DNA from: a virus
Taxonomy: Duplodnaviria; Heunggongvirae; Uroviricota; Caudoviricetes
Virus record (IMG/VR): IMGVR_UViG_2541047695_000005
Location: 1-25,968 of that record
DNA: 25,968 bases
Strand: one strand, 5' to 3'
The number at the start of each line of letters is the position of its first letter. Within the stretch, counting starts at the first letter, position 1. Position numbers and translations under genes: made by a program. This document shows, in pieces, positions 1 through 21,955 of the stretch. The notes under the pieces are model-generated. The model ran no database searches. It saw only the letters and a program-made list of their open reading frames with translations, and had not been told where the DNA came from.

Positions 1-90
1 CGGGTTCGCATAAGGGTCGCCGCTCCCGTTATAAACCCACAGGGTGGTTCCGGCACCTTTCACCGGTATTGCTGGATTTGGTACAGGCAT
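1..90 (-). CDS. V: major tail protein V, 5' part only (gene runs off the window start)
   Basis: Reverse complement of 1-90 starts with ATG and reads [30 protein letters not shown], matching the lambda gpV N-terminus as I recall it; it starts 8 nt after the U stop, as in lambda. Confidence 0.8.
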
Positions 91-97
91 ATCGTCC

Positions 98-493
98 TCA
101 CATTTCATAGGTAATGACATAAGTCAGATCGGCAGAACTCCACAGGCCCGCATCATCGTCGCGCCGGTAGTCATAGCCACTGGCCACCATACTGGTGATC
201 AAATCTGACAGTGCCGGGATATCGCTCATCACCGGATAAATCCGGGACTCCATCCACGAATCCAGCTCTGAATCCGGCACCTGAGCAGGCAGGAAAACTT
301 CGATATGCAGCTCCGCCTGCCAGGTATCGCTGTCCAGCTCTTCGCCCGTGTATTCAGCGCCGGTGAGATAAACGGCAACTGCCGGAAAATCCGCCTCATC
401 AAAAACAGCGGGGCGACCATCAAAAAGCGTCGCCCCGGTGTCATGCTTCTCCAGTGCATCCAGTACGGCTGCACGGAGTTCAGTATGTTTCAT
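98..493 (-). CDS. U: tail terminator protein U
   Basis: 131-aa ORF, same length as lambda gpU and in the lambda position between Z and V; 4-nt overlap with Z as in lambda. Confidence 0.85.
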
Positions 494-8331: not shown

Positions 8332-8851
8332 TCAGCAACCCCGGTATCAGTTCATCCAGCGCGGCTGCTTTGTTCATGGCTTTGATGATATCCCGTTTCA
8401 GGAAATCAACATGTCGGTTTTCCAGTTCCGGAAAACGCCGCTGCACCGACAGGGGGATCCCGTCGAGAATACTGGCAATTTCACCTGCGATCCGCGACAG
8501 CACGAAAGTACAGAATGCGGTTTCCACCACTTCAGCGGAGTCTCTGGCATTTTTCAGCTCCTGTGCGTCGGCCTGCGCACGCGTAAGTCGATGGCGTTCG
8601 TACTCAATAGTCCCTGGCTGGAGATCTGTCTCGCTGGCCTGCCGCAGTTCTTCAACTTCCCGGCGCAGCTTTTCGTTCTCAATTTCAGCATCCCTTTCGG
8701 CATACCATTTTATGACGGCGGCAGAGTCATAAAGCACCTCATTACCCTTGCCACCGCCTCGCAGAACGGGCATTCCCTGTTCCTGCCAGTTCTGAATGGT
8801 ACGGATACTCGCACCGAAAATGTCAGCCAGCTGCTTTTTGTTGACTTCCAT
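8306..8851 (-). CDS. Nu1: terminase small subunit Nu1
   Basis: 181-aa ORF MEVNKKQLADIFGASIRTIQNWQEQGMPVLRGGGKGNEVLYDSAAVIKWYAERD..., matching lambda Nu1; overlaps the A start as in lambda. Confidence 0.95.
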
Positions 8852-9100
8852 TGTTCATTCCACGGACAAAAACAGAGAAAGGAAACGACAGAGGCCAAAA
8901 AGCTCGCTTTCAGCACCTGTCGTTTCCTTTCTTTTCAGAGGGTATTTTAAATAAAAACATTAAGTTATGACGAAGAAGAACAGAAACGCCTTAAACCGGA
9001 AAATTTTCATAAATAGCGAAAACCCGCGAGGTCGCCGCCCCGTAACCTGTCGGATCGCCGGAAAGGACCCGCAAAATGATAATAATTATCATCTATATGT
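8852..9100. other. cos: cos site (cosB - cosN with 12-nt cohesive end at about 9030-9041 - cosQ)
   Basis: The reverse complement of about 8852-9041 reproduces the lambda left end (GGGCGGCGACCTCGCGGGTTTTCGCTATTTATGAAAATTTTCCGG...); the sequence after about 9041 matches the lambda right end (...CGACAGGTTACG). The two ends are therefore joined here. Confidence 0.85.
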
Positions 9101-9239
9101 CACAACGTGCATCTACGCCATCAAACCACGTCAAATAATCAATTATGACGCAGGTATCGTATTAATTGATCTGCATCAACTTAACGTAAAAACAACTTCA
9201 GACAATACAAATCAGCGACACTGAATACGGGGCAACCTC

Positions 9240-9473
9240 ATGTCAACGAAGAACAAAACCCGCAGAACAACAACCCGCAACATCCGCTTTCCTAACCAAA
9301 TGATTGAACAAATTAACATCGCTCTTGATCAAAAAGGGTCCGGGAATTTCTCAGCCTGGGTCATTGAAGCCTGCCGCCGGAGACTGTGCTCAGAAAAAAG
9401 AGTTTCTCCTGAAGCAAACAAAGAAAAGAGTGACATTACTGAATTGCTCAGAAAACAGGTCAGACCAGATTGA
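9240..9473 (+). CDS. small ribbon-helix-helix-like DNA-binding protein (putative)
   Basis: 77-aa ORF with a basic N-terminus, then a strand-helix-loop-helix pattern (RNIRFPNQMIEQINIALDQKGSGNFSAWVIEACRRRL) typical of Arc/MetJ/CopG-type RHH proteins; opposite orientation to the late operon. Confidence 0.45.
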   Translation: MSTKNKTRRTTTRNIRFPNQMIEQINIALDQKGSGNFSAWVIEACRRRLCSEKRVSPEANKEKSDITELLRKQVRPD

Positions 9474-9530
9474 AGCAATTTAGATAATCGTGCAGACTAC
9501 GCCCCCTCATATCACATGGAAGGTTTATCT

Positions 9531-9941
9531 ATGGATCAGGTAGTCATTTTTAAACAAATATTTGATAAAGTTCGAAACGATTTAAACTATCAATGGTTTT
9601 ATTCTGAGCTAAAACGTCACAATGTCTCACATTACATTTACTATTTAGCCACAGAGAATGTTCATATTGTATTAAAAAATGATAATACAGTGTTATTAAA
9701 GGGCCTAAAAAACATTGTGTCTGTCAAATTTTCAAAGGATAGGCATCTTATAGAAACGACCTCTAATAAGCTGAAATCCAGAGAGATCACATTTCAGGAA
9801 TACAGAAGAAACCTTGCTAAAGCAGGAGTTTTTCGGTGGGTTACAAATATCCACGAACAAAAAAGATATTACTATACCTTTGATAATTCATTACTCTTTA
9901 CTGAAAACATACAGAGCACATCACAAATGTTTCCACACTAA
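9531..9941 (+). CDS. DUF1398 (YbcV/YdfO-like) family protein, putative
   Basis: Second ATG of the track ORF has the better RBS (GGAAGG, 7-nt spacing); the C-terminal AGVFRWV motif and the cos-proximal position resemble the YbcV/YdfO family of K-12 lambdoid prophages. Assigned from memory. Confidence 0.45.
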
Positions 9942-10243
9942 ACCATAACGTCCGGTTTCTTCTACCCCTGCACCGGACTGGCTGACATGAAGAGCAACCC
10001 CGCGTTCAGTTGACACGTTAATAACCCGGTGTGCATCGTTTTTGATTATTCCCGCACACTCACGCAGAAGGAATTCCCCGTCGGGCTACGGTCATGGTTA
10101 ATGCGGGAATACGGCGACGATACAGCGCATGATGTGTCAGGCTTGAATACCTTTATCCGTTAAAAGGGATATCAGTTAAGTTATCCCGTGCAGGGTATAA
10201 GCCATTATCAAGCCCCCCGTAGATAGGCTTTGTAATGACATCT

Positions 10244-13512: not shown

Positions 13513-13772
13513 GGTTCTTTCCACTATCTGAAAAATAATTCTTTAAAATACCTGACATGTAATACAGAAAAAACACAAAACTATACCTTAAATAAAAACC
13601 TGATTATCAAGCAGATATGCATGGATAAACTACAAGACGAGATATAAACCACCCTGCATTTAAATAAACAATAAACAACATCAGAAAAATAATTCTGCTC
13701 TATGGTTTACATTCAAAAATATCATTTATACTTTTCAGGACATCACCAGCAAGGCATAAACAAGGAAACCAA

Positions 13773-14108
13773 ATGAAGTGGATTGTGATTGATACAGTTA
13801 TCCAGCCATCATGCGGAATATCTTTTTCAGTCATATGGAGTAAAATAAAATTAATAATCTGGTATCAATCGGATGCTTTCTTACCTCCTGAAAGTATATT
13901 TACACTGACTCACACAGGCATCATGCTCAATAACAAAGTGCTACCTGTAACCATTTACAACGTAGTACCATTCAATAAAACATTCTGGAATTTAATCAAA
14001 AACAGCCAGGAATGCCCTACAAATACAGATAACGTATTGAATGAATGCTTTAATAACCGTTGCACTCTGCAAATATGTCCTTATGGACTAAAACAACAAA
14101 GTCCATAA
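13773..14108 (+). CDS. hypothetical Cys-rich 111-aa protein (moron, own promoter)
   Basis: ATG preceded by AAGGAA at about 7 nt; upstream TTTACA-15 nt-TATACT promoter-like motif at about 13706-13732; very AT-rich; C-terminal Cys pattern [26 protein letters not shown]; a hairpin (CAGCCCCTC-CGGA-GAGGGGCTG) about 35 nt downstream. Confidence 0.4.
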
Positions 14109-14555
14109 GGAGTTTACTCACATCTGACAAAATCAATATAAACAGCCCCTCCGGAGAGGGGCTGGAGAGTGGCGCTATGTGCCATTGCATGGTGCCGGGT
14201 GCCTCCCGGTGAATTCAGTACCAGCACCTGAATCCGCGATTATCCCATATACCTACTCGCTGATTGCCCCTCCGCACAGGGGGATTCACCATGCCAGTTT
14301 CTTTTAACAAACTCCCCGCAAACCAGACAACAGTCAACCGCCTGAATTGTGAAGTATTTAAAAATTTCTCCCGCTAACTGATACCCGGCTAACAGTCTGG
14401 CGTTTTCTTTTTCAGCAACGGAAAAGCAACAACCACCACACCTGCCACCAGCACACCGTCAGCCAGCACTGACATTATCCGGCTGCTGCAATGCCATTCA
14501 CAAAAACAGTAAGCAATCACTTTTTACCGTAACAGGTGATAATCCAGATATGTAT

Positions 14556-15019: not shown

Positions 15020-15095
15020 TGGCGCGCTGTACTGGATTTGAACCAGCGACCTGGCGATTATGAGTCGCTCGCTCTCACCACTGAGCTAAAGGACC
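15020..15095 (-). tRNA. tRNA-like gene, anticodon CAT (Ile2/Met-type), acceptor stem unpaired - probable pseudo-tRNA
   Basis: The minus strand aligns arm by arm with the E. coli tRNA-Ile2 cloverleaf (D-arm GCTC-AGTGGTGA-GAGC, anticodon loop CTCATAA, T-arm GCTGG-TTCAAAT-CCAGT, encoded CCA), but the 5' acceptor GGTCCTT cannot pair with the 3' ACAGCGC. Confidence 0.5.
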
Positions 15096-18231: not shown

Positions 18232-18387
18232 TTACTCCTCAGGTTCGTAGACTGTGAAGACAGCGACCTCCGTCTGGCCGGTTCGGATTCGTACCTCGCA
18301 GAGGTCTTTCCTCGTTACCAGTGCCGTCACTATGACGGTTAAACAGATGACGATCAGGGCGATTAACATCGCCTTTTGCTGCTTCAT
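18232..18387 (-). CDS. hok: Hok/Gef family type I toxin
   Basis: In-frame ATG at residue 20 of the track ORF gives MKQQKAMLIALIVICLTVIVTALVTRKDLCEVRIRTGQTEVAVFTVYEPEE (51 aa), near-identical to E. coli HokD as I recall it. Confidence 0.85.
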   Translation of the reverse strand: MKQQKAMLIALIVICLTVIVTALVTRKDLCEVRIRTGQTEVAVFTVYEPEE

Positions 18388-18444
18388 AGCCTGCTTCTCC
18401 TTGCCTTTCGGCACGTAAGAGGCTAACCTAGATTTGCCGTTCAT
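18232..18444 (-). CDS. mok: mok-like N-terminally extended frame (70 codons) overlapping hok
   Basis: The same frame extended upstream by 19 codons; 70 codons equals the classical mok length in hok/mok/sok loci. Confidence 0.5.
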   Translation of the reverse strand: MNGKSRLASYVPKGKEKQAMKQQKAMLIALIVICLTVIVTALVTRKDLCEVRIRTGQTEVAVFTVYEPEE

Positions 18445-18500
18445 AGATTGAGCCTCAGATTAATGTTAAGCGTCTTGCAGGACGCGTAATGTTAACTGGG
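18430..18500 (+). ncRNA. sok: putative Sok-like antisense RNA (bounds approximate)
   Basis: Plus-strand TTGCCT-17 nt-TAACCT at about 18401-18429 would start a transcript antisense to the mok start region; a GCGTC-TTGCAG-GACGC hairpin lies at about 18471-18487. Inferred from hok/sok architecture, not verified. Confidence 0.3.
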
Positions 18501-18562
18501 GCTTTTCTCTATCTGCCTTTGGTGTTCATGCCTGAGACAGATAGCCTCAAGCACCCGCAGCC

Positions 18563-18591: not shown

Positions 18592-18991
18592 TATGAAATC
18601 AGTCAGAAAGGCGATCCATAAGAACAACAGCAAGGCAATAAATTGCCATTACAGCAGCAATAGCCAGCGCACATTTGAGAACCAGCACCACAACCTCCTG
18701 TATTGGACGTACACCAGTCCTGATAAATATGAGGCTGTCTCGTCAGTGATTCAATACAACTATTGGGTATAGTTTCTGTGATTTTGTTCTGTAGAAATGG
18801 AACATAATAACCTGTCACCACCAGCACTTCTTTAAATACGCCAAGTCCGACGCAAGCTAACCTTCTAGCCCGCTTTGAGCGAAGAACGGACTGAGTAATT
18901 CAGGCCGTTAGCGACACTATGACATCATTAGCAACCAACTAGGAGTTGGTAATAGATGAGTTAATTAATTGATTAAAAACCGACGATTTTA

Positions 18992-19019
18992 CTAGATTAC
19001 GGGAAGAAGAAAGGCCGCT
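18992..19019 (-). terminator. intrinsic terminator after the 65-aa gene
   Basis: Minus strand AGGCCG-TACCAG-CGGCCT followed by TTCTTCTTCC. Confidence 0.35.
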
Positions 19020-19054
19020 GGTACGGCCTCCCAGAGACTAGTCTATTGTTATGC

Positions 19055-19252
19055 TTAGAAACGCTTTTCTATCTCTTTTTCTCTTTCGTTTATTGCATCG
19101 TCAATGATTTTTTTTGCTGAATTAATTTGTGGTGTTTTTTCTGGTAATACATCTTCAAGATCTTTGGCAATTTTCTTTAATTTATCGATTTCTTTAGTTA
19201 AATCAGTTACAGATTTATCCGCTATTGACTTTGTCATTTTTCCATATTCCAT
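19055..19252 (-). CDS. hypothetical small coiled-coil protein
   Basis: 65-aa ORF, Lys/Glu/Asp-rich helical composition (KEIDKLKKIAKDLEDVL...), AT-rich, followed by its own hairpin terminator; no family recognised. Confidence 0.35.
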   Translation of the reverse strand: MEYGKMTKSIADKSVTDLTKEIDKLKKIAKDLEDVLPEKTPQINSAKKIIDDAINEREKEIEKRF

Positions 19253-19425
19253 TCAATTTATTTATCAATCAGTTACCCGTAAACCTTATCATGGATTCCA
19301 ATTATCGACAGCTGGGATTTTTACTTTCTTGATCTGCCCCAGGCGAATGACATATCCCCATTAACCAATGTCCGCTCCTAGCACTTAGTAGACATTAATA
19401 GATTGTAAGCGTTCCCGTCATGTAG

Positions 19426-19806
19426 CGGTCACCGATTGGTGATGAATTGAAGCGGATCATTGATGAAAGTCGCAATAACGTGGCCAGCCCATTTATCGTT
19501 CACCAGATCCCGGAACGGCAGGTTAAACGCAGCAAAGAAGTTTCTCATCCCACTCAAGTTGCACCAGACTATTTGAGTCGGTCGTTTTCAGCTACGCGTG
19601 ACAAGCTGGGTTTATATGACAAACGGCCGATGGATGAAAGGCCAACCTTTCACGAAATTCGCGCCTTAGCAGCACATCTTTTTGATCAGCAGGGCATCGA
19701 TCCACAAGGACGAATGGCACACAGCGATGCGAAATCAACTAAAATCTACACGCAAAACCATATCGACTGGGTTGTAGTTCCACATGGAGAAATTAAAGCC
19801 AGCTAG
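19426..19806 (+). pseudogene. tyrosine integrase, C-terminal catalytic fragment only (truncated)
   Basis: The open frame starts right after an in-frame stop, with no N-terminal domains; it contains the integrase box-II-like segment RPTFHEIRALAAHLFDQQGIDPQGRMAHSDAKSTKIYTQ (H-x-x-R ... H ... Y). Confidence 0.6.
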
Positions 19807-19899
19807 CACCAAGTAAGGCATAGAATTTTATTAACCAAGGAGCATATGACCAGTAATTAATTCTTACCGGAAAGTTAGCCCTGCTAAAATTAATATTAA

Positions 19900-19936
19900 C
19901 AAATAAAAAAATAGGGGCAAATATTTATATTTGCCC
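19900..19936 (-). terminator. intrinsic terminator immediately downstream of the two-gene nucleotidyltransferase/2TM operon
   Basis: Perfect 10-bp inverted repeat GGGCAAATAT/ATATTTGCCC about 12 nt after the stop codon, followed on the minus strand by a long U-tract (TATTTTTTTTATTTG). Confidence 0.5.
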
Positions 19937-19947
19937 TCGCAACATAT

Positions 19948-20529
19948 TTATCTTCTTTTCAGTTCCTTGGGAAGAAAAGCATCTATTTCTTCTTCAGAAA
20001 ATGTTAAATCTTCTTTGTTTTTTAATGCGTCCTGTGCTTTTTTATAAGCTTCAAATGTTGTACTAGGAGAGCCTGAATACACTGAATGTAAACTCTCGAG
20101 TAACGAATCCCGCTCTGACTGCAATTGCTCGATTGGTTTTTCACCCATTGCTAAGTCTGTAAGCAATGATAAATACTTTTCTCGGATTAACCAGATCTCA
20201 TTTGCAGCCTGCTTATGTTTTTGCGCCAACTCACCAAGGTCATAATCTTTGGTATAAGCGTTAAGAATGAGAAGCAGTGTTGATACAACAATCCCAACCC
20301 CCGTGCCTACTTCACCCGCGCCGAAAAAAGTTGCTAGAAAGCCTCCAGTAGTTAAGGCGGAGAGAATTATTTGCCAAAACTTTATAGAAGATAGTCGAGA
20401 TAGGAGAATGTCTGAGCATTTTTCATGCGTCTTATGTGAGTAAACGACCCGACCATAACACTCTCTGATCTGCCCTTCTAAAACCCTTCTAGATTCAGGT
20501 GTATCCTTAGTCTGGAAATGTTGATCCAT
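19948..20529 (-). CDS. SLATT-like two-transmembrane-helix effector protein (putative)
   Basis: ATG at residue 20 of the track ORF with GGGAG RBS, overlapping the upstream gene by 23 nt; 193 aa with a soluble N-terminus, two adjacent TM helices (WQIILSALTTGGFLATFFGAG and GVGIVVSTLLLILNAYT) and a helical C-terminal half, the SLATT architecture. Confidence 0.55.
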   Translation of the reverse strand: MDQHFQTKDTPESRRVLEGQIRECYGRVVYSHKTHEKCSDILLSRLSSIKFWQIILSALTTGGFLATFFGAGEVGTGVGIVVSTLLLILNAYTKDYDLGELAQKHKQAANEIWLIREKYLSLLTDLAMGEKPIEQLQSERDSLLESLHSVYSGSPSTTFEAYKKAQDALKNKEDLTFSEEEIDAFLPKELKRR

Positions 20530-21388
20530 AAATCTCCCGCCATTTTTGCTTAGCCGACCATTCGCGTTTTGGGGTCGCCATTTCATGCTCTATAGCTTCG
20601 AGTGAAATGTTATAGCACCGTTTTGCTTTATATTGGAAAAGCCCTTTACCATAGACATACTGACCACTTCCTGGCGCTTTCCAATACTCCTTACTCGTAT
20701 CTTGATCAGCCATCCATTTGAAGAAATCACGACTCATGAAATCGTAGTAAAGATACGACTTATCTCTATGCGCCCAATTTTCAATGAATTGATACGCAAG
20801 CGTATCAATGAGTAAACCACTTATAGGTACATCCCATTTACGCTTCCAAGCTCTTGCCATTCTACAAAGTTGCACCAAATTGTTATTGGTAATGTTATTT
20901 CTTAACCTCATTGCAGAAATTTCTGGCTTTGGATTTGTAATCCTCCAACGGCCACCACCGTTCGCATCAGGAAATGTGTAACTATCACTAACATTGAGGA
21001 AAGCTGGAACGACTTCAAATGTAATTCCATCATTGAACGGTACAAGGATCACTTGACCGTCACCTCTAATACTAGTGGTAGCATAGGTTTTTTCAATAGA
21101 TCTCTTAACCGCTTGAAGCAATGCTGACTGCCCATTTCCTAAGTAGCTATTGTATTTTTGATACTCGGAATATGGTAGCTGAAAAATCATATCCAGATCG
21201 CTCAAGCCTTGCGTAGCTGTGTTCCGACCATATGATCCAACGTAGAGACTATGAGAAGTATCAGAACTGCTATCCCAAAAATCCGTATTTAAACGCTTCG
21301 TTATATTCCTATATCTAGTTGAAATTGTTCCACCATCTTTTACAGTAAGATTGGAGCAAAATCCGCAAAACCACTCAGCTAAACCCAT
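20507..21388 (-). CDS. cGAS/DncV-like (SMODS-type) nucleotidyltransferase (putative cyclic-oligonucleotide synthase)
   Basis: ATG at residue 3 of the track ORF with AAGGAA RBS; motif LYVGSYGRNTATQGLSDLDMIF matches the GS-x-x-R-x-T ... D-x-D nucleotidyltransferase signature of CD-NTase/SMODS enzymes; AT-rich; a perfect TATAAT lies upstream at about 21540. Confidence 0.6.
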   Translation of the reverse strand: MGLAEWFCGFCSNLTVKDGGTISTRYRNITKRLNTDFWDSSSDTSHSLYVGSYGRNTATQGLSDLDMIFQLPYSEYQKYNSYLGNGQSALLQAVKRSIEKTYATTSIRGDGQVILVPFNDGITFEVVPAFLNVSDSYTFPDANGGGRWRITNPKPEISAMRLRNNITNNNLVQLCRMARAWKRKWDVPISGLLIDTLAYQFIENWAHRDKSYLYYDFMSRDFFKWMADQDTSKEYWKAPGSGQYVYGKGLFQYKAKRCYNISLEAIEHEMATPKREWSAKQKWREIYGSTFPD

Positions 21389-21681
21389 GCTCAATTCCTT
21401 TTCTAAAATCTAATGAAAAATTCAAGGGCGCATGTTCCATGCATCATTGATAACTTTTTTCAGTCAGCTAGAGCAACATAATTGATACTAACTAGCTGTT
21501 TCTTCAAGTGAGTAACCTACTTTAGCATCAAGGTATTATACCTACCAAGCATGGGGAGAAACCACCACTTAAGCCATTGAAGTATATAGAGCAGATTTTG
21601 TTGAAAAAGCACTGTTTGTTTATACATATGAATAGTGCTTTTAACCAGCAATAGCGCGGCTCTCAGCGTTTTACAAGCAGT

Positions 21682-21730
21682 GTCATGGGGTGTCGGGGAT
21701 CGGAAGTTCAAATCCTCTCGTGCCGACCCA
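21682..21730 (+). other. 3' fragment of a tRNA-Pro(GGG) gene (att-site-like remnant), about 50 nt, no 5' half
   Basis: GTCATGGGGTGTCGGGGATCGGAAGTTCAAATCCTCTCGTGCCGACCCA matches the anticodon-loop-to-3'-end portion of E. coli tRNA-Pro (proL type) with a few mismatches as recalled; the upstream sequence does not form the 5' half. Confidence 0.65.
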
Positions 21731-21742
21731 AAAGATTATATA

Positions 21743-21770
21743 AACCAGCCTGTTATTGCTGGTTTTTTAT
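21743..21770 (+). terminator. intrinsic terminator just downstream of the tRNA-Pro fragment
   Basis: AACCAGC-CTGTTATT-GCTGGTT followed by TTTTTAT on the plus strand. Confidence 0.45.
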
Positions 21771-21955
21771 GCCTACCTTCCTGGTAGGGAAGCTATGGGG
21801 AATTACTGGGGAATCCCCCCTTTACCTGCTCCCATTAAACTAACATAGCACGATGTAAGCAACTTCCGCTTCTGGCACAAAGCGGACAACCACGCTAGCT
21901 CTACCCTGTGCCACAAAATGTCAATTTACATCTGAACTAATGCACTTTAATCTCG

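Follow-up and report, generated by a model that had tools for sequence, protein, structure and literature searches.

A SMODS cyclase and SLATT_4 effector pair as a probable minimal type I CBASS cassette in a lambdoid prophage of Escherichia coli

The window analysed here, a 25,968-nucleotide stretch of viral DNA (IMG/VR record IMGVR_UViG_2541047695_000005), contains two adjacent genes that encode a CD-NTase of the SMODS family and a SLATT_4 membrane protein with two transmembrane (TM) helices. We conclude that this 1.44-kb cassette is very probably a minimal CBASS of type I that acts by abortive infection; its carrier is a Qin-like lambdoid prophage of E. coli, in which it is a moron. The same minimal cyclase-plus-2TM CBASS reading had been put forward in an earlier note on this DNA, and it is supported by the SMODS, SLATT_4 and PADLOC profiles. 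The cassette was assigned to type I because no accessory gene lies nearby: in agreement with the note, neither the RefSeq annotation of the neighbourhood nor a PADLOC scan of nine neighbouring ORFs revealed Cap2/Cap3, HORMA/TRIP13 or any other accessory gene. The neighbours (DUF977, a replisome organizer, YdaT, repressors, hok and DUF968) gave no match to the CBASS accessory models. The further suggestion that the pairing could be an uncharacterised variant was not upheld, since this is a widespread, annotated type I pairing that is represented by PADLOC models and has experimentally validated relatives. The cassette is thus already catalogued and is no new system; RefSeq names both proteins, and standard defence finders would call it CBASS type I. 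What the analysis adds is its context, namely a 3.0-kb cargo block in a variable hotspot, together with the remnant of an integrase and a tRNA-Pro relic. The positions of all features are collected in Table 1.

Table 1. Features of the cassette and its surroundings (positions in the window unless given as residues)
Feature	Position	Strand	Details
SLATT_4 two-TM effector gene	19948..20529	-	193 aa, RefSeq WP_000371964.1
CD-NTase / SMODS cyclase gene	20507..21388	-	293 aa, RefSeq WP_000521772.1
Cyclase active-site codons	GS 51-52 = 21238-21233; D64 = 21199-21197; D66 = 21193-21191; E125 = 21016-21014	-	
Cyclase 3' / effector 5' overlap	20507..20529	-	23 nt, read from the sequence
Effector RBS GGGAG	20538-20534	-	4 nt before the effector ATG, inside the cyclase gene
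Cyclase RBS AAGGA	21396..21400	-	7 nt before the cyclase ATG
Intrinsic terminator	19905..19936	-	9-bp stem, 4-nt loop, T-run; terminator scan and sequence
TATAAT -10-like hexamer, candidate promoter only	21535..21540	-	147 nt upstream of the cyclase ATG
Effector N-terminal part and TM hairpin	residues ~11-48; ~49-69; ~76-93		cytoplasmic N-terminal helix; TM1; TM2, with loop GAGEVG between TM1 and TM2
Effector cytoplasmic helices after TM2	residues 98-128, 133-153, 159-170		
Cargo block between hok/sok and DUF977	18876..21883	.	3.0 kb, 40% GC; from flanks and GC
Tyrosine-recombinase pseudogene	19407..19806	+	C-terminal remainder of an integrase of lambda type; orientation convergent with that of the effector gene
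tRNA-Pro fragment with downstream hairpin and T-run	21682..21770	+	3' 52 nt of the gene = 21682-21733

The two proteins and their expression signals

The Pfam SMODS profile (PF18144) matched the cyclase over the whole model (positions 1-164 of 164) with E = 2e-50 and 171.6 bits against a cutoff of 26.5, and the PADLOC CBASS Cyclase model PDLC00786 matched it at full length with 477 bits. The NCBIfam equivalog model CBASS_cyclase_b (NF041117) scored 116.9 bits, below its cutoff of 200, which makes the protein a relative, and no equivalog, of CBASS_cyclase_b. In the ORF list the cyclase frame extends over 20507..21394 (minus strand; 295 aa from a TTG, 293 aa from the ATG at 21388) and the effector frame over 19948..20586 (minus strand; 212 aa, or 193 aa from the ATG at 20529); the 293-aa and 193-aa starts are those used by RefSeq on identical DNA. 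The nucleotidyltransferase signature that had been read from the sequence, GSYGRNTA...SDLDM, corresponds to G51, S52, D64 and D66, which are invariant in the alignment of cyclase relatives. The third member of the GS...DxD...acidic triad is Glu125; 68 of the 73 relatives have it, and in the alignment it falls on the catalytic Asp of Pseudomonas aeruginosa CdnD (PaCdnD). The triad is therefore conserved, and a Glu in place of the usual Asp at this position is a conserved trait of the subfamily to which the cyclase belongs. The AlphaFold model of the cyclase, for which the input consisted only of homologues at 78% identity or higher, reached a pLDDT of 59.5 and a Foldseek TM of about 0.3, although global TM-scores are uninformative for such a model. 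Because the model is poor, the evidence for the fold comes mainly from the sequence profiles.

The CD-NTase clades A-H reportedly follow a scheme of Whiteley et al. 2019, and to our knowledge no member of clade F has a solved structure. The solved structures nearest to the cyclase are those of clade D CD-NTases, while its sister group carries the AGS-C sensor domain, which has been reported for clades B and H and parts of F and G, not for D (bioRxiv 10.1101/2023.05.21.541620). The domain is absent from the cyclase itself and present in relatives at 40-45% identity; this AGS-C form of the cyclase accompanies SLATT_4 in 14 of 80 loci from different species. The AGS-C-bearing relatives suggest that the cyclase may belong to a clade that permits AGS-C fusions.

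The effector was matched along the whole Pfam SLATT_4 model (PF18186; positions 1-165 of 165) with E = 4.4e-74 and 248.1 bits against a cutoff of 27, by NCBIfam NF033632 with 150.7 bits against a cutoff of 55, and at full length by the PADLOC Effector 2TM model PDLC00696 with 281 bits; the Pfam profile search gave no SLATT_6 match. The profile-HMM and PADLOC searches proposed in the earlier note thus recovered both partners of the pair. Its description of two adjacent TM helices followed by a helical domain agrees with the Kyte-Doolittle hydropathy profile (19-residue window, values >1.4), which has peaks centred at residues 60-63 and 73-84, and with the AlphaFold model (all-helical, pLDDT 71, helices 11-61 and 73-95), in which a TM hairpin is combined with cytoplasmic helices. 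A conserved 48-residue cytoplasmic N-terminal helix ahead of the hairpin had not been mentioned. The conserved cytoplasmic parts of the effector are this N-terminal YGRVVYSHKTHEK helix and the post-TM2 helices with H105, R116, R140 and Y162. A Foldseek search against the PDB found no significant structural homologue (best E = 0.08, generic helical proteins), and a PDB sequence search with the effector returned nothing.

The two genes are co-oriented and overlap as first described, and the shared stretch, where the cyclase gene ends and the effector gene begins, suggests translational coupling. Both ribosome-binding sites were located in the sequence, and the AAAAGGAAT stretch at that of the cyclase is invariant across the E. 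coli, Enterobacter and Pectobacterium loci. The terminator reported beyond the second gene is also present; its stem (19936..19915), followed by CTATTTTTTT, begins 11 nt past the effector stop codon, where 12 nt had been given. The promoter fared less well. A perfect TATAAT does exist, but neither a -35 nor an extended -10 element can be recognised with it, the promoter scan did not call it (for lack of a -35) and it is not conserved in the homologous Enterobacter or Pectobacterium loci, so that its role as the native promoter is weakly supported. The 550-nt region upstream of the cyclase is not conserved beyond Enterobacter, and an Rfam E-value scan of it for conserved ncRNAs gave chance-level matches only.

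Conservation of the pair and its place in the prophage

Across a set of 80 SLATT_4 loci, drawn from different species of more than 20 phyla, the SMODS cyclase lies directly upstream on the same strand in every case (80 of 80), and the 23-nt overlap with the start codon at the homologous position is found in 48 of the 68 full-length pairs from other species, indicating that the pairing is obligate. The conserved pair occurs on chromosomes and plasmids, mostly outside a recognisable lambdoid context. Among isolated phages, the INPHARED set contained no close homologue and yielded four distant matches only.

In the window, the pair lies in a block with a GC content of 0.40 (18886-21867), compared with 0.50 and 0.48 in the flanks and 0.57 in the structural genes. 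The AT-rich insert noticed at the outset is therefore real, with the correction that it is a 3.0-kb cargo located in a hotspot between hok/sok and DUF977. The flanks are common to six other prophages and stop near 18885 to resume near 21868. Left of about 18700, the backbone of the LR-24 locus (L001) differs from the window. The same 3009 bp are found, 99.6% identical, at a second prophage position after tail-fibre genes. The context is that of mobile prophage cargo. Other prophages carry at this hotspot the PADLOC defence candidates PDC-S33, AbiU-like and PDC-S39, and the hok/sok-DUF977 junction of Qin/Rac-like prophages acts like a place where defence cargo is swapped.

Besides the CBASS pair, the block contains a 65-aa ORF (19055-19252, minus strand), the integrase remnant and the tRNA-Pro fragment. 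The integrase pseudogene, described by RefSeq as a frameshifted recombinase with a missing N-terminus, gave a weak Pfam Phage_integrase match and shares ~78% nucleotide identity with an intact 392-aa integrase that adjoins the cassette in an Enterobacter locus (L010). The tRNA-Pro fragment is also present in that locus, and blastn showed 94% identity to the 3' part of the annotated tRNA-Pro in all E. coli genomes. That a working tRNA or tmRNA precedes the cyclase gene was considered and rejected, as ARAGORN and Rfam found none and only the 3' 52 nt of tRNA-Pro are present. The fragment is a relic attachment site, and together with the integrase remnant it is a relic of an Enterobacter-like prophage end.

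This location raises the alternative that the pair serves the prophage itself, either as a module for addiction or stabilisation or else as an auxiliary holin-like device for lysis or lysis timing, which would be expressed on induction by early rightward read-through from the replication genes. The pair is indeed co-oriented with the cro-O-DUF977...Q early-right operon, it adjoins the hok/sok addiction module, and SLATT, like holins, is a small two-TM membrane protein. However, the occurrence of the pair in so many phyla, mostly with no recognisable lambdoid context, is difficult to reconcile with a service to lambdoid prophages, and the pair, ending in its own terminator, is part of a self-contained block with a further occurrence after the tail-fibre genes. 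Moreover, the prophage already has holin, endolysin and spanin genes, the alternative cargos of the hotspot are defence candidates, and cloned operons of related type I CBASS give defence on their own. We therefore regard a role in the service of the prophage as very unlikely.

That the cassette is an inactive, hitch-hiking relic, no longer expressed or functional in this genome, is an equally improbable explanation: it does lie amid pseudogene debris (the integrase remnant and the tRNA fragment) with only a candidate promoter, and the cyclase is disrupted in some strains, but neither ORF is damaged here, both have the sequence of the commonest alleles, the catalytic residues and RBSs are intact, the exact cyclase sequence recurs in 2565 blocks of the public collection, and the cargo block is 99.6-100% conserved in unrelated E. 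coli strains at two genomic positions. The cyclase is inactivated in at least two E. coli genomes, in two of which an identical SLATT gene remains intact: strain B1_2 has a 14-bp frameshifting deletion in the cyclase, and strain AUSMDU00014361 an IS1203 insertion. The system is therefore dispensable and subject to decay.

Proposed mechanism and use of the cassette

The activities of a type I CBASS system can be projected onto the pair from the two protein families and from tested relatives. In the uninfected lysogen, the 293-aa SMODS/CD-NTase would be inactive or weakly active, and infection by another phage would provide some cue that activates it. For type I systems related to this one, genetics ties the cue to phage virion-assembly proteins, and escape mutations map to the prohead protease or scaffold. 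The metal-binding site formed by GS, D64-x-D66 and E125 would then convert NTPs into a cyclic di- or oligonucleotide. The 193-aa SLATT_4 protein, presumably held in the inner membrane by its two-helix hairpin, may bind this signal with the cytoplasmic YGRVVYSHKTHEK helix and the post-TM2 helices (H105, R116, R140, Y162), and the bound protein would oligomerise or open, leading to collapse of the membrane barrier and to cell death before progeny release.

The order of these events could also be inverted, as in a guard: a constitutively made product would keep SLATT closed until phage sponges or phosphodiesterases deplete the cyclic nucleotides and thereby unleash the effector, with death of the cell as the outcome. 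In favour of this order, the cyclase is devoid of a sensor domain and of regulators, some type I CD-NTases, e.g. EcCdnE01, are constitutively active in vitro (bioRxiv 10.1101/2023.05.21.541620), and minimal pairs of a cyclase and a 2TM effector with such inverse logic, Panoptes and Panoptoo, are known (PMC12657230, PMC12657218). However, Panoptes combines an mCpol or DAC cyclase with a Cap15-like beta-barrel and has neither SMODS nor an all-helical SLATT, and the catalytically dead DDAA variant of the EcCdnD12-4TM operon was non-toxic (bioRxiv 10.1101/2023.05.21.541620). The E. coli genomes with an intact SLATT gene and a destroyed cyclase, a combination expected to be toxic under a guard, point in the same direction, although these natural knockouts are weak evidence because both lesions may also lower SLATT expression. 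Overall, we give a guard very little chance of being the correct explanation, and signal-activated killing remains our preferred reading.

Within this preferred reading, we propose only tentatively, and consider it rather doubtful, that the bare 293-aa Glu-type cyclase without AGS-C makes an undescribed nucleotide signal and that the all-helical cytoplasmic bundle of SLATT_4 (the YGRVVYSHKTHEK helix and the post-TM2 helices) represents a new class of cyclic-nucleotide receptor and gate, unrelated to SAVED, STING, the Cap15 beta-barrel and CARF. If this were true, the unusually strong conservation in more than 20 phyla would reflect a tight co-adaptation of enzyme, ligand and pore.

As a discovery, the cassette carries little weight; its use is as a model for the mechanism of SLATT and for the signals of the paired cyclases. 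Being native to E. coli, tiny, highly conserved and located in a lambdoid prophage, it is a convenient model system, and it lends itself to the question of how an induced prophage keeps from setting off the abortive-infection module that it carries.

Comparison with known systems

The cassette is a member of type I CBASS with a 2TM effector, a class that reportedly comes from Millman et al. 2020. Like the other members, it has just two genes, that of the CD-NTase first and that of a small two-TM effector second, and no accessories. Structurally, nothing sets it apart from the class; its third acidic residue is Glu instead of the usual Asp, a trait of its subfamily. Phages were restricted at least 10^4-fold by type I CBASS operons of two genes, CdnF04-SLATT6 of E. 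coli among them, and defence required the DxD catalytic residues in the operons for which this was reported, e.g. EcCdnD12-4TM (bioRxiv 10.1101/2023.05.21.541620). EcCdnF04-SLATT6 and EcCdnF05-SLATT6 (Richmond-Buccola et al.), which restrict many dsDNA phages, share with the cassette the E. coli host and the two-gene layout of a CD-NTase and a SLATT-family 2TM effector, but their effector is SLATT_6 whereas that of the prophage cassette is SLATT_4; they were set against the cassette by description.

With respect to the effector, the counterpart is the type I CBASS of the lactococcal plasmid pUCCL631, for which antiphage activity was confirmed and the phenotype is consistent with Abi (PMC11381338). 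It likewise pairs a CD-NTase with a PF18186 (SLATT_4) effector, of 190 aa. However, its NTase/AGS-C cyclase, 408 aa long, carries an AGS-C sensor domain at the C-terminus, whereas the prophage cyclase is a bare 293-aa protein, and it is carried by a plasmid in a Gram-positive host, whereas the E. coli cassette resides in a prophage. PaCdnD (PDB 6P82/6P8U), a type III CBASS cyclase, has ~22% identity to the prophage cyclase; it is regulated by HORMA/TRIP13 and has Asp as its third residue, whereas the prophage cyclase has no such partners and has Glu. A Panoptes-type effector was rejected because the Panoptes effectors are Cap15-like beta-barrels, in contrast to the all-helical fold of the effector described here. 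Panoptes is likewise a minimal combination of a nucleotide cyclase and a two-TM membrane effector, but it couples an mCpol/Cas10-like cyclase to its beta-barrel effector and operates by inverse logic, whereas the prophage cassette pairs SMODS with an all-helical SLATT_4.

Cyclase and effector genes

Open reading frame calling and the RefSeq starts bore out the two minus-strand genes and the 23-nt overlap described in the earlier note. The nucleotidyltransferase assignment of the first product withstood the profile searches: the protein matched Pfam SMODS over the entire model (E = 2e-50) and the PADLOC CBASS cyclase model PDLC00786 at 292/293 positions (477 bits), and the GS...DLD signature was seen in its sequence. 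NCBIfam CBASS_cyclase_b gave 117 bits, under the equivalog cutoff of 200; therefore the cyclase represents a different subfamily. The nearest solved relative, matched at full length, is P. aeruginosa CdnD (phmmer E = 7e-9, profile E = 1e-16), in which the third catalytic residue is Asp, whereas the cyclase from the window has Glu125 at the aligned position. Relatives down to 40% identity all have G51, S52, D64 and D66, and 68 out of 73 also have E125. The AlphaFold model of the cyclase was poor (pLDDT 59.5) because all of the homologues supplied for it were at least 78% identical. In RefSeq the protein is WP_000521772.1, 'SMODS domain-containing nucleotidyltransferase'; its exact sequence recurs in 2565 blocks of the public collection.

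The second product had been described as a SLATT-like effector with two adjacent transmembrane (TM) helices followed by a helical domain, and both parts of this description held. It matched Pfam SLATT_4 over the entire model (E = 4e-74), NCBIfam SLATT_4 (151 bits, cutoff 55) and the PADLOC '2TM' CBASS effector PDLC00696 (281 bits); RefSeq calls it 'SLATT domain-containing protein' (WP_000371964.1). Hydropathy and AlphaFold (pLDDT 71) predicted a cytoplasmic helix at the N-terminus, followed by a TM hairpin with the loop GAGEVG between its helices (~49-69 and ~76-93) and by three further helices in the cytoplasm. A search by sequence and by fold returned no similar solved structure. The polar residues conserved in a comparison of 47 diverse members of the family are located in its cytoplasmic parts (the YGRVVYTHKTHEK motif, H105, R116, R140, Y162 and E181), a pattern suggesting that these residues may form the ligand-binding and gating region.

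The ribosome-binding sites of both genes were found, as was the terminator after the second stop codon, a 9-bp stem with a T-run beginning 11 nt downstream of the stop. The AT-rich character of the block was also evident (GC 0.40; the flanking DNA has ~0.50 and the structural genes 0.57). The perfect TATAAT exists, but it is a weak promoter candidate: it has no -35 element or extended -10, was not called by the promoter scan and showed no conservation in homologous loci. Upstream of this -10-like hexamer lies a hairpin with a 9-bp stem (AAAAGCACT...AGTGCTTTT) followed by TTTTT, which could insulate the cassette against read-through; Rfam gave only chance-level miRNA matches to it.

Coordinates of features in the window and of related loci
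Feature	Coordinates	Strand	Remarks
Low-GC stretches	8800-10000; 13600-14000		GC 0.33-0.41; between terminase genes and lysis region
sRNA STnc100	14134-14323	-	Rfam/ARAGORN
tRNA-Met gene	15020-15094	-	Rfam/ARAGORN
sok antitoxin RNA	18382-18556	-	Rfam/ARAGORN; adjoins hokD
Cargo block	18876-21883		3.0 kb; fills variable site between hok/sok and DUF977
65-aa ORF	19055-19252	-	Lysine/glutamate-rich; RefSeq hypothetical WP_000167380.1
Lambda-type integrase pseudogene	19407-19806	+	Within cargo block
Effector gene	19948-20529	-	193 aa; ATG start
Cyclase gene	20507-21388	-	293 aa; ATG start
TATAAT hexamer	21540-21535	-	
Hairpin	21605-21642	-	
tRNA-Pro 3' 52 nt and terminator	21682-21770	+	Within cargo block
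Second-position block copy	L008 8577-11585		Also in L095, L096, L099, L100
Enterobacter sp. RIT637 cassette locus	L010 3544-6857		

Gene pairing and the CBASS interpretation

A SMODS cyclase lies directly upstream of the effector gene, on the same strand, in 80 out of 80 species-level genomes (loci L010-L089) encoding a SLATT_4 relative (59-92% identity to the E. coli effector). More than 20 phyla are represented among these genomes, which range from Enterobacteriaceae to Planctomycetota, Nitrospirota, Chloroflexota and Cyanobacteriota. Among 68 full-length pairs, the overlap is exactly 23 nt in 48 and the cyclase has 293 or 294 aa in 50. In 14 SLATT_4 loci the cyclase is ~430 aa long with a C-terminal AGS-C domain; the window cyclase is the bare form, relatives of which are 60-86% identical to the E. 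coli protein. Judged from these comparisons, conservation of the cassette is unusually high for a defence system. As the earlier note had claimed, none of the neighbouring ORFs in the window matched a CBASS accessory protein. The SMODS and SLATT_4 pair without accessory genes is therefore laid out as a type I CBASS. Overall, the original observation is confirmed and its interpretation supported.

Classical CBASS is the best-supported explanation of the cassette, and we consider it highly probable. Infection would switch on the cyclase, the cyclic oligonucleotide that it makes would be bound by SLATT_4, and the resulting disruption of the inner membrane would abort the infection. An inverse, Panoptes-like logic is very improbable, since Panoptes pairs mCpol or DAC cyclases with Cap15-like beta-barrel effectors. 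Two natural E. coli genomes in which the cyclase is destroyed and the SLATT gene is intact, encoding an identical protein, also speak against it, weakly, as both lesions (a 14-bp frameshifting deletion in strain B1_2 and an IS1203 insertion in strain AUSMDU00014361) are possibly polar on SLATT. A lysis or addiction role in the service of the prophage is countered by the occurrence of the cassette in many non-phage contexts, by its own terminator and by the separate lysis genes of the prophage. The intact and highly conserved state of both ORFs argues against a dead relic.

Host prophage and probable origin of the cargo block

The window DNA is from E. coli: the 2.7 kb around the cassette match several complete chromosomes of this species at 100% identity, and this whole segment is present in 46 out of 5426 complete genomes. 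The neighbourhood has the gene content of a Qin-like lambdoid prophage (tail, head, terminase, lysis, Q, DUF968, hok/sok, DUF977, replisome organizer, YdaT and cro/cI); the prophage also contains the tabulated RNA genes. The two additional low-GC stretches are probably other moron regions, according to the LR-24 annotation (ynfO/ydfO/gnsB, cold-shock genes).

Six other E. coli prophages (L002-L007) share the flanks of the cargo block, up to ~18885 and from ~21868. Their cargo differs, and includes a RelA/SpoT protein (PADLOC PDC-S33), an AIPR/AbiU-like protein, a DUF4209 protein (PDC-S39), a DUF5677 protein and unknown proteins. The hok/sok-DUF977 junction of Qin/Rac-like lambdoid prophages thus looks like a hotspot for defence cargo.

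Within the block, the integrase pseudogene and the tRNA-Pro fragment lie on either side of the cassette. A homologous cassette in Enterobacter sp. RIT637 is situated at a prophage end: on one side is a tRNA-Pro fragment adjoining the chromosomal mqo/MFS genes, and on the other an intact integrase (392 aa) with the prophage early genes beyond it. Since the nucleotide identity of ~78% to this locus continues from the cassette into the tRNA fragment on one side and the integrase on the other, the E. coli block looks like the captured end of an Enterobacter-like prophage, with the cassette in an int-att moron position.

The same 3009 bp (65-aa ORF, integrase remnant, SLATT, SMODS and tRNA-Pro fragment) occur with 99.6% identity at a second position, just behind the tail-fibre assembly gene in other prophages of E. 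coli, and carry ~10-15 bp of the conserved border sequence of the hotspot at either end. The 65-aa ORF, which accompanies the block at both positions, is probably a coiled-coil and had no meaningful family match. The hotspot, the relics and the second location are new context, outside the region covered by the earlier note.

Comparison with known CBASS systems

The cassette was correctly identified but is already catalogued; being small, conserved and native to E. coli, it would be a convenient model for the SLATT mechanism and the nucleotide signal. Two-gene operons of type I CBASS have been screened at large scale; 2TM or 4TM effectors paired with cyclases of clade D, E or F are their commonest combination, and the E. 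coli pair CdnF04-SLATT6 restricted members of five phage families by a factor of 10^4 or more. The plaque assays of that study used catalytically dead (DDAA) operons as inactive controls, and the dead version of EcCdnD12-4TM showed no toxicity (bioRxiv 10.1101/2023.05.21.541620). A lactococcal plasmid carries a type I CBASS composed of a PF18186 (SLATT_4) effector and an NTase/AGS-C cyclase; experiments confirmed its antiphage activity, and the phenotype was consistent with Abi (PMC11381338). The system in the window shares this effector family, whereas its cyclase is of the bare form.
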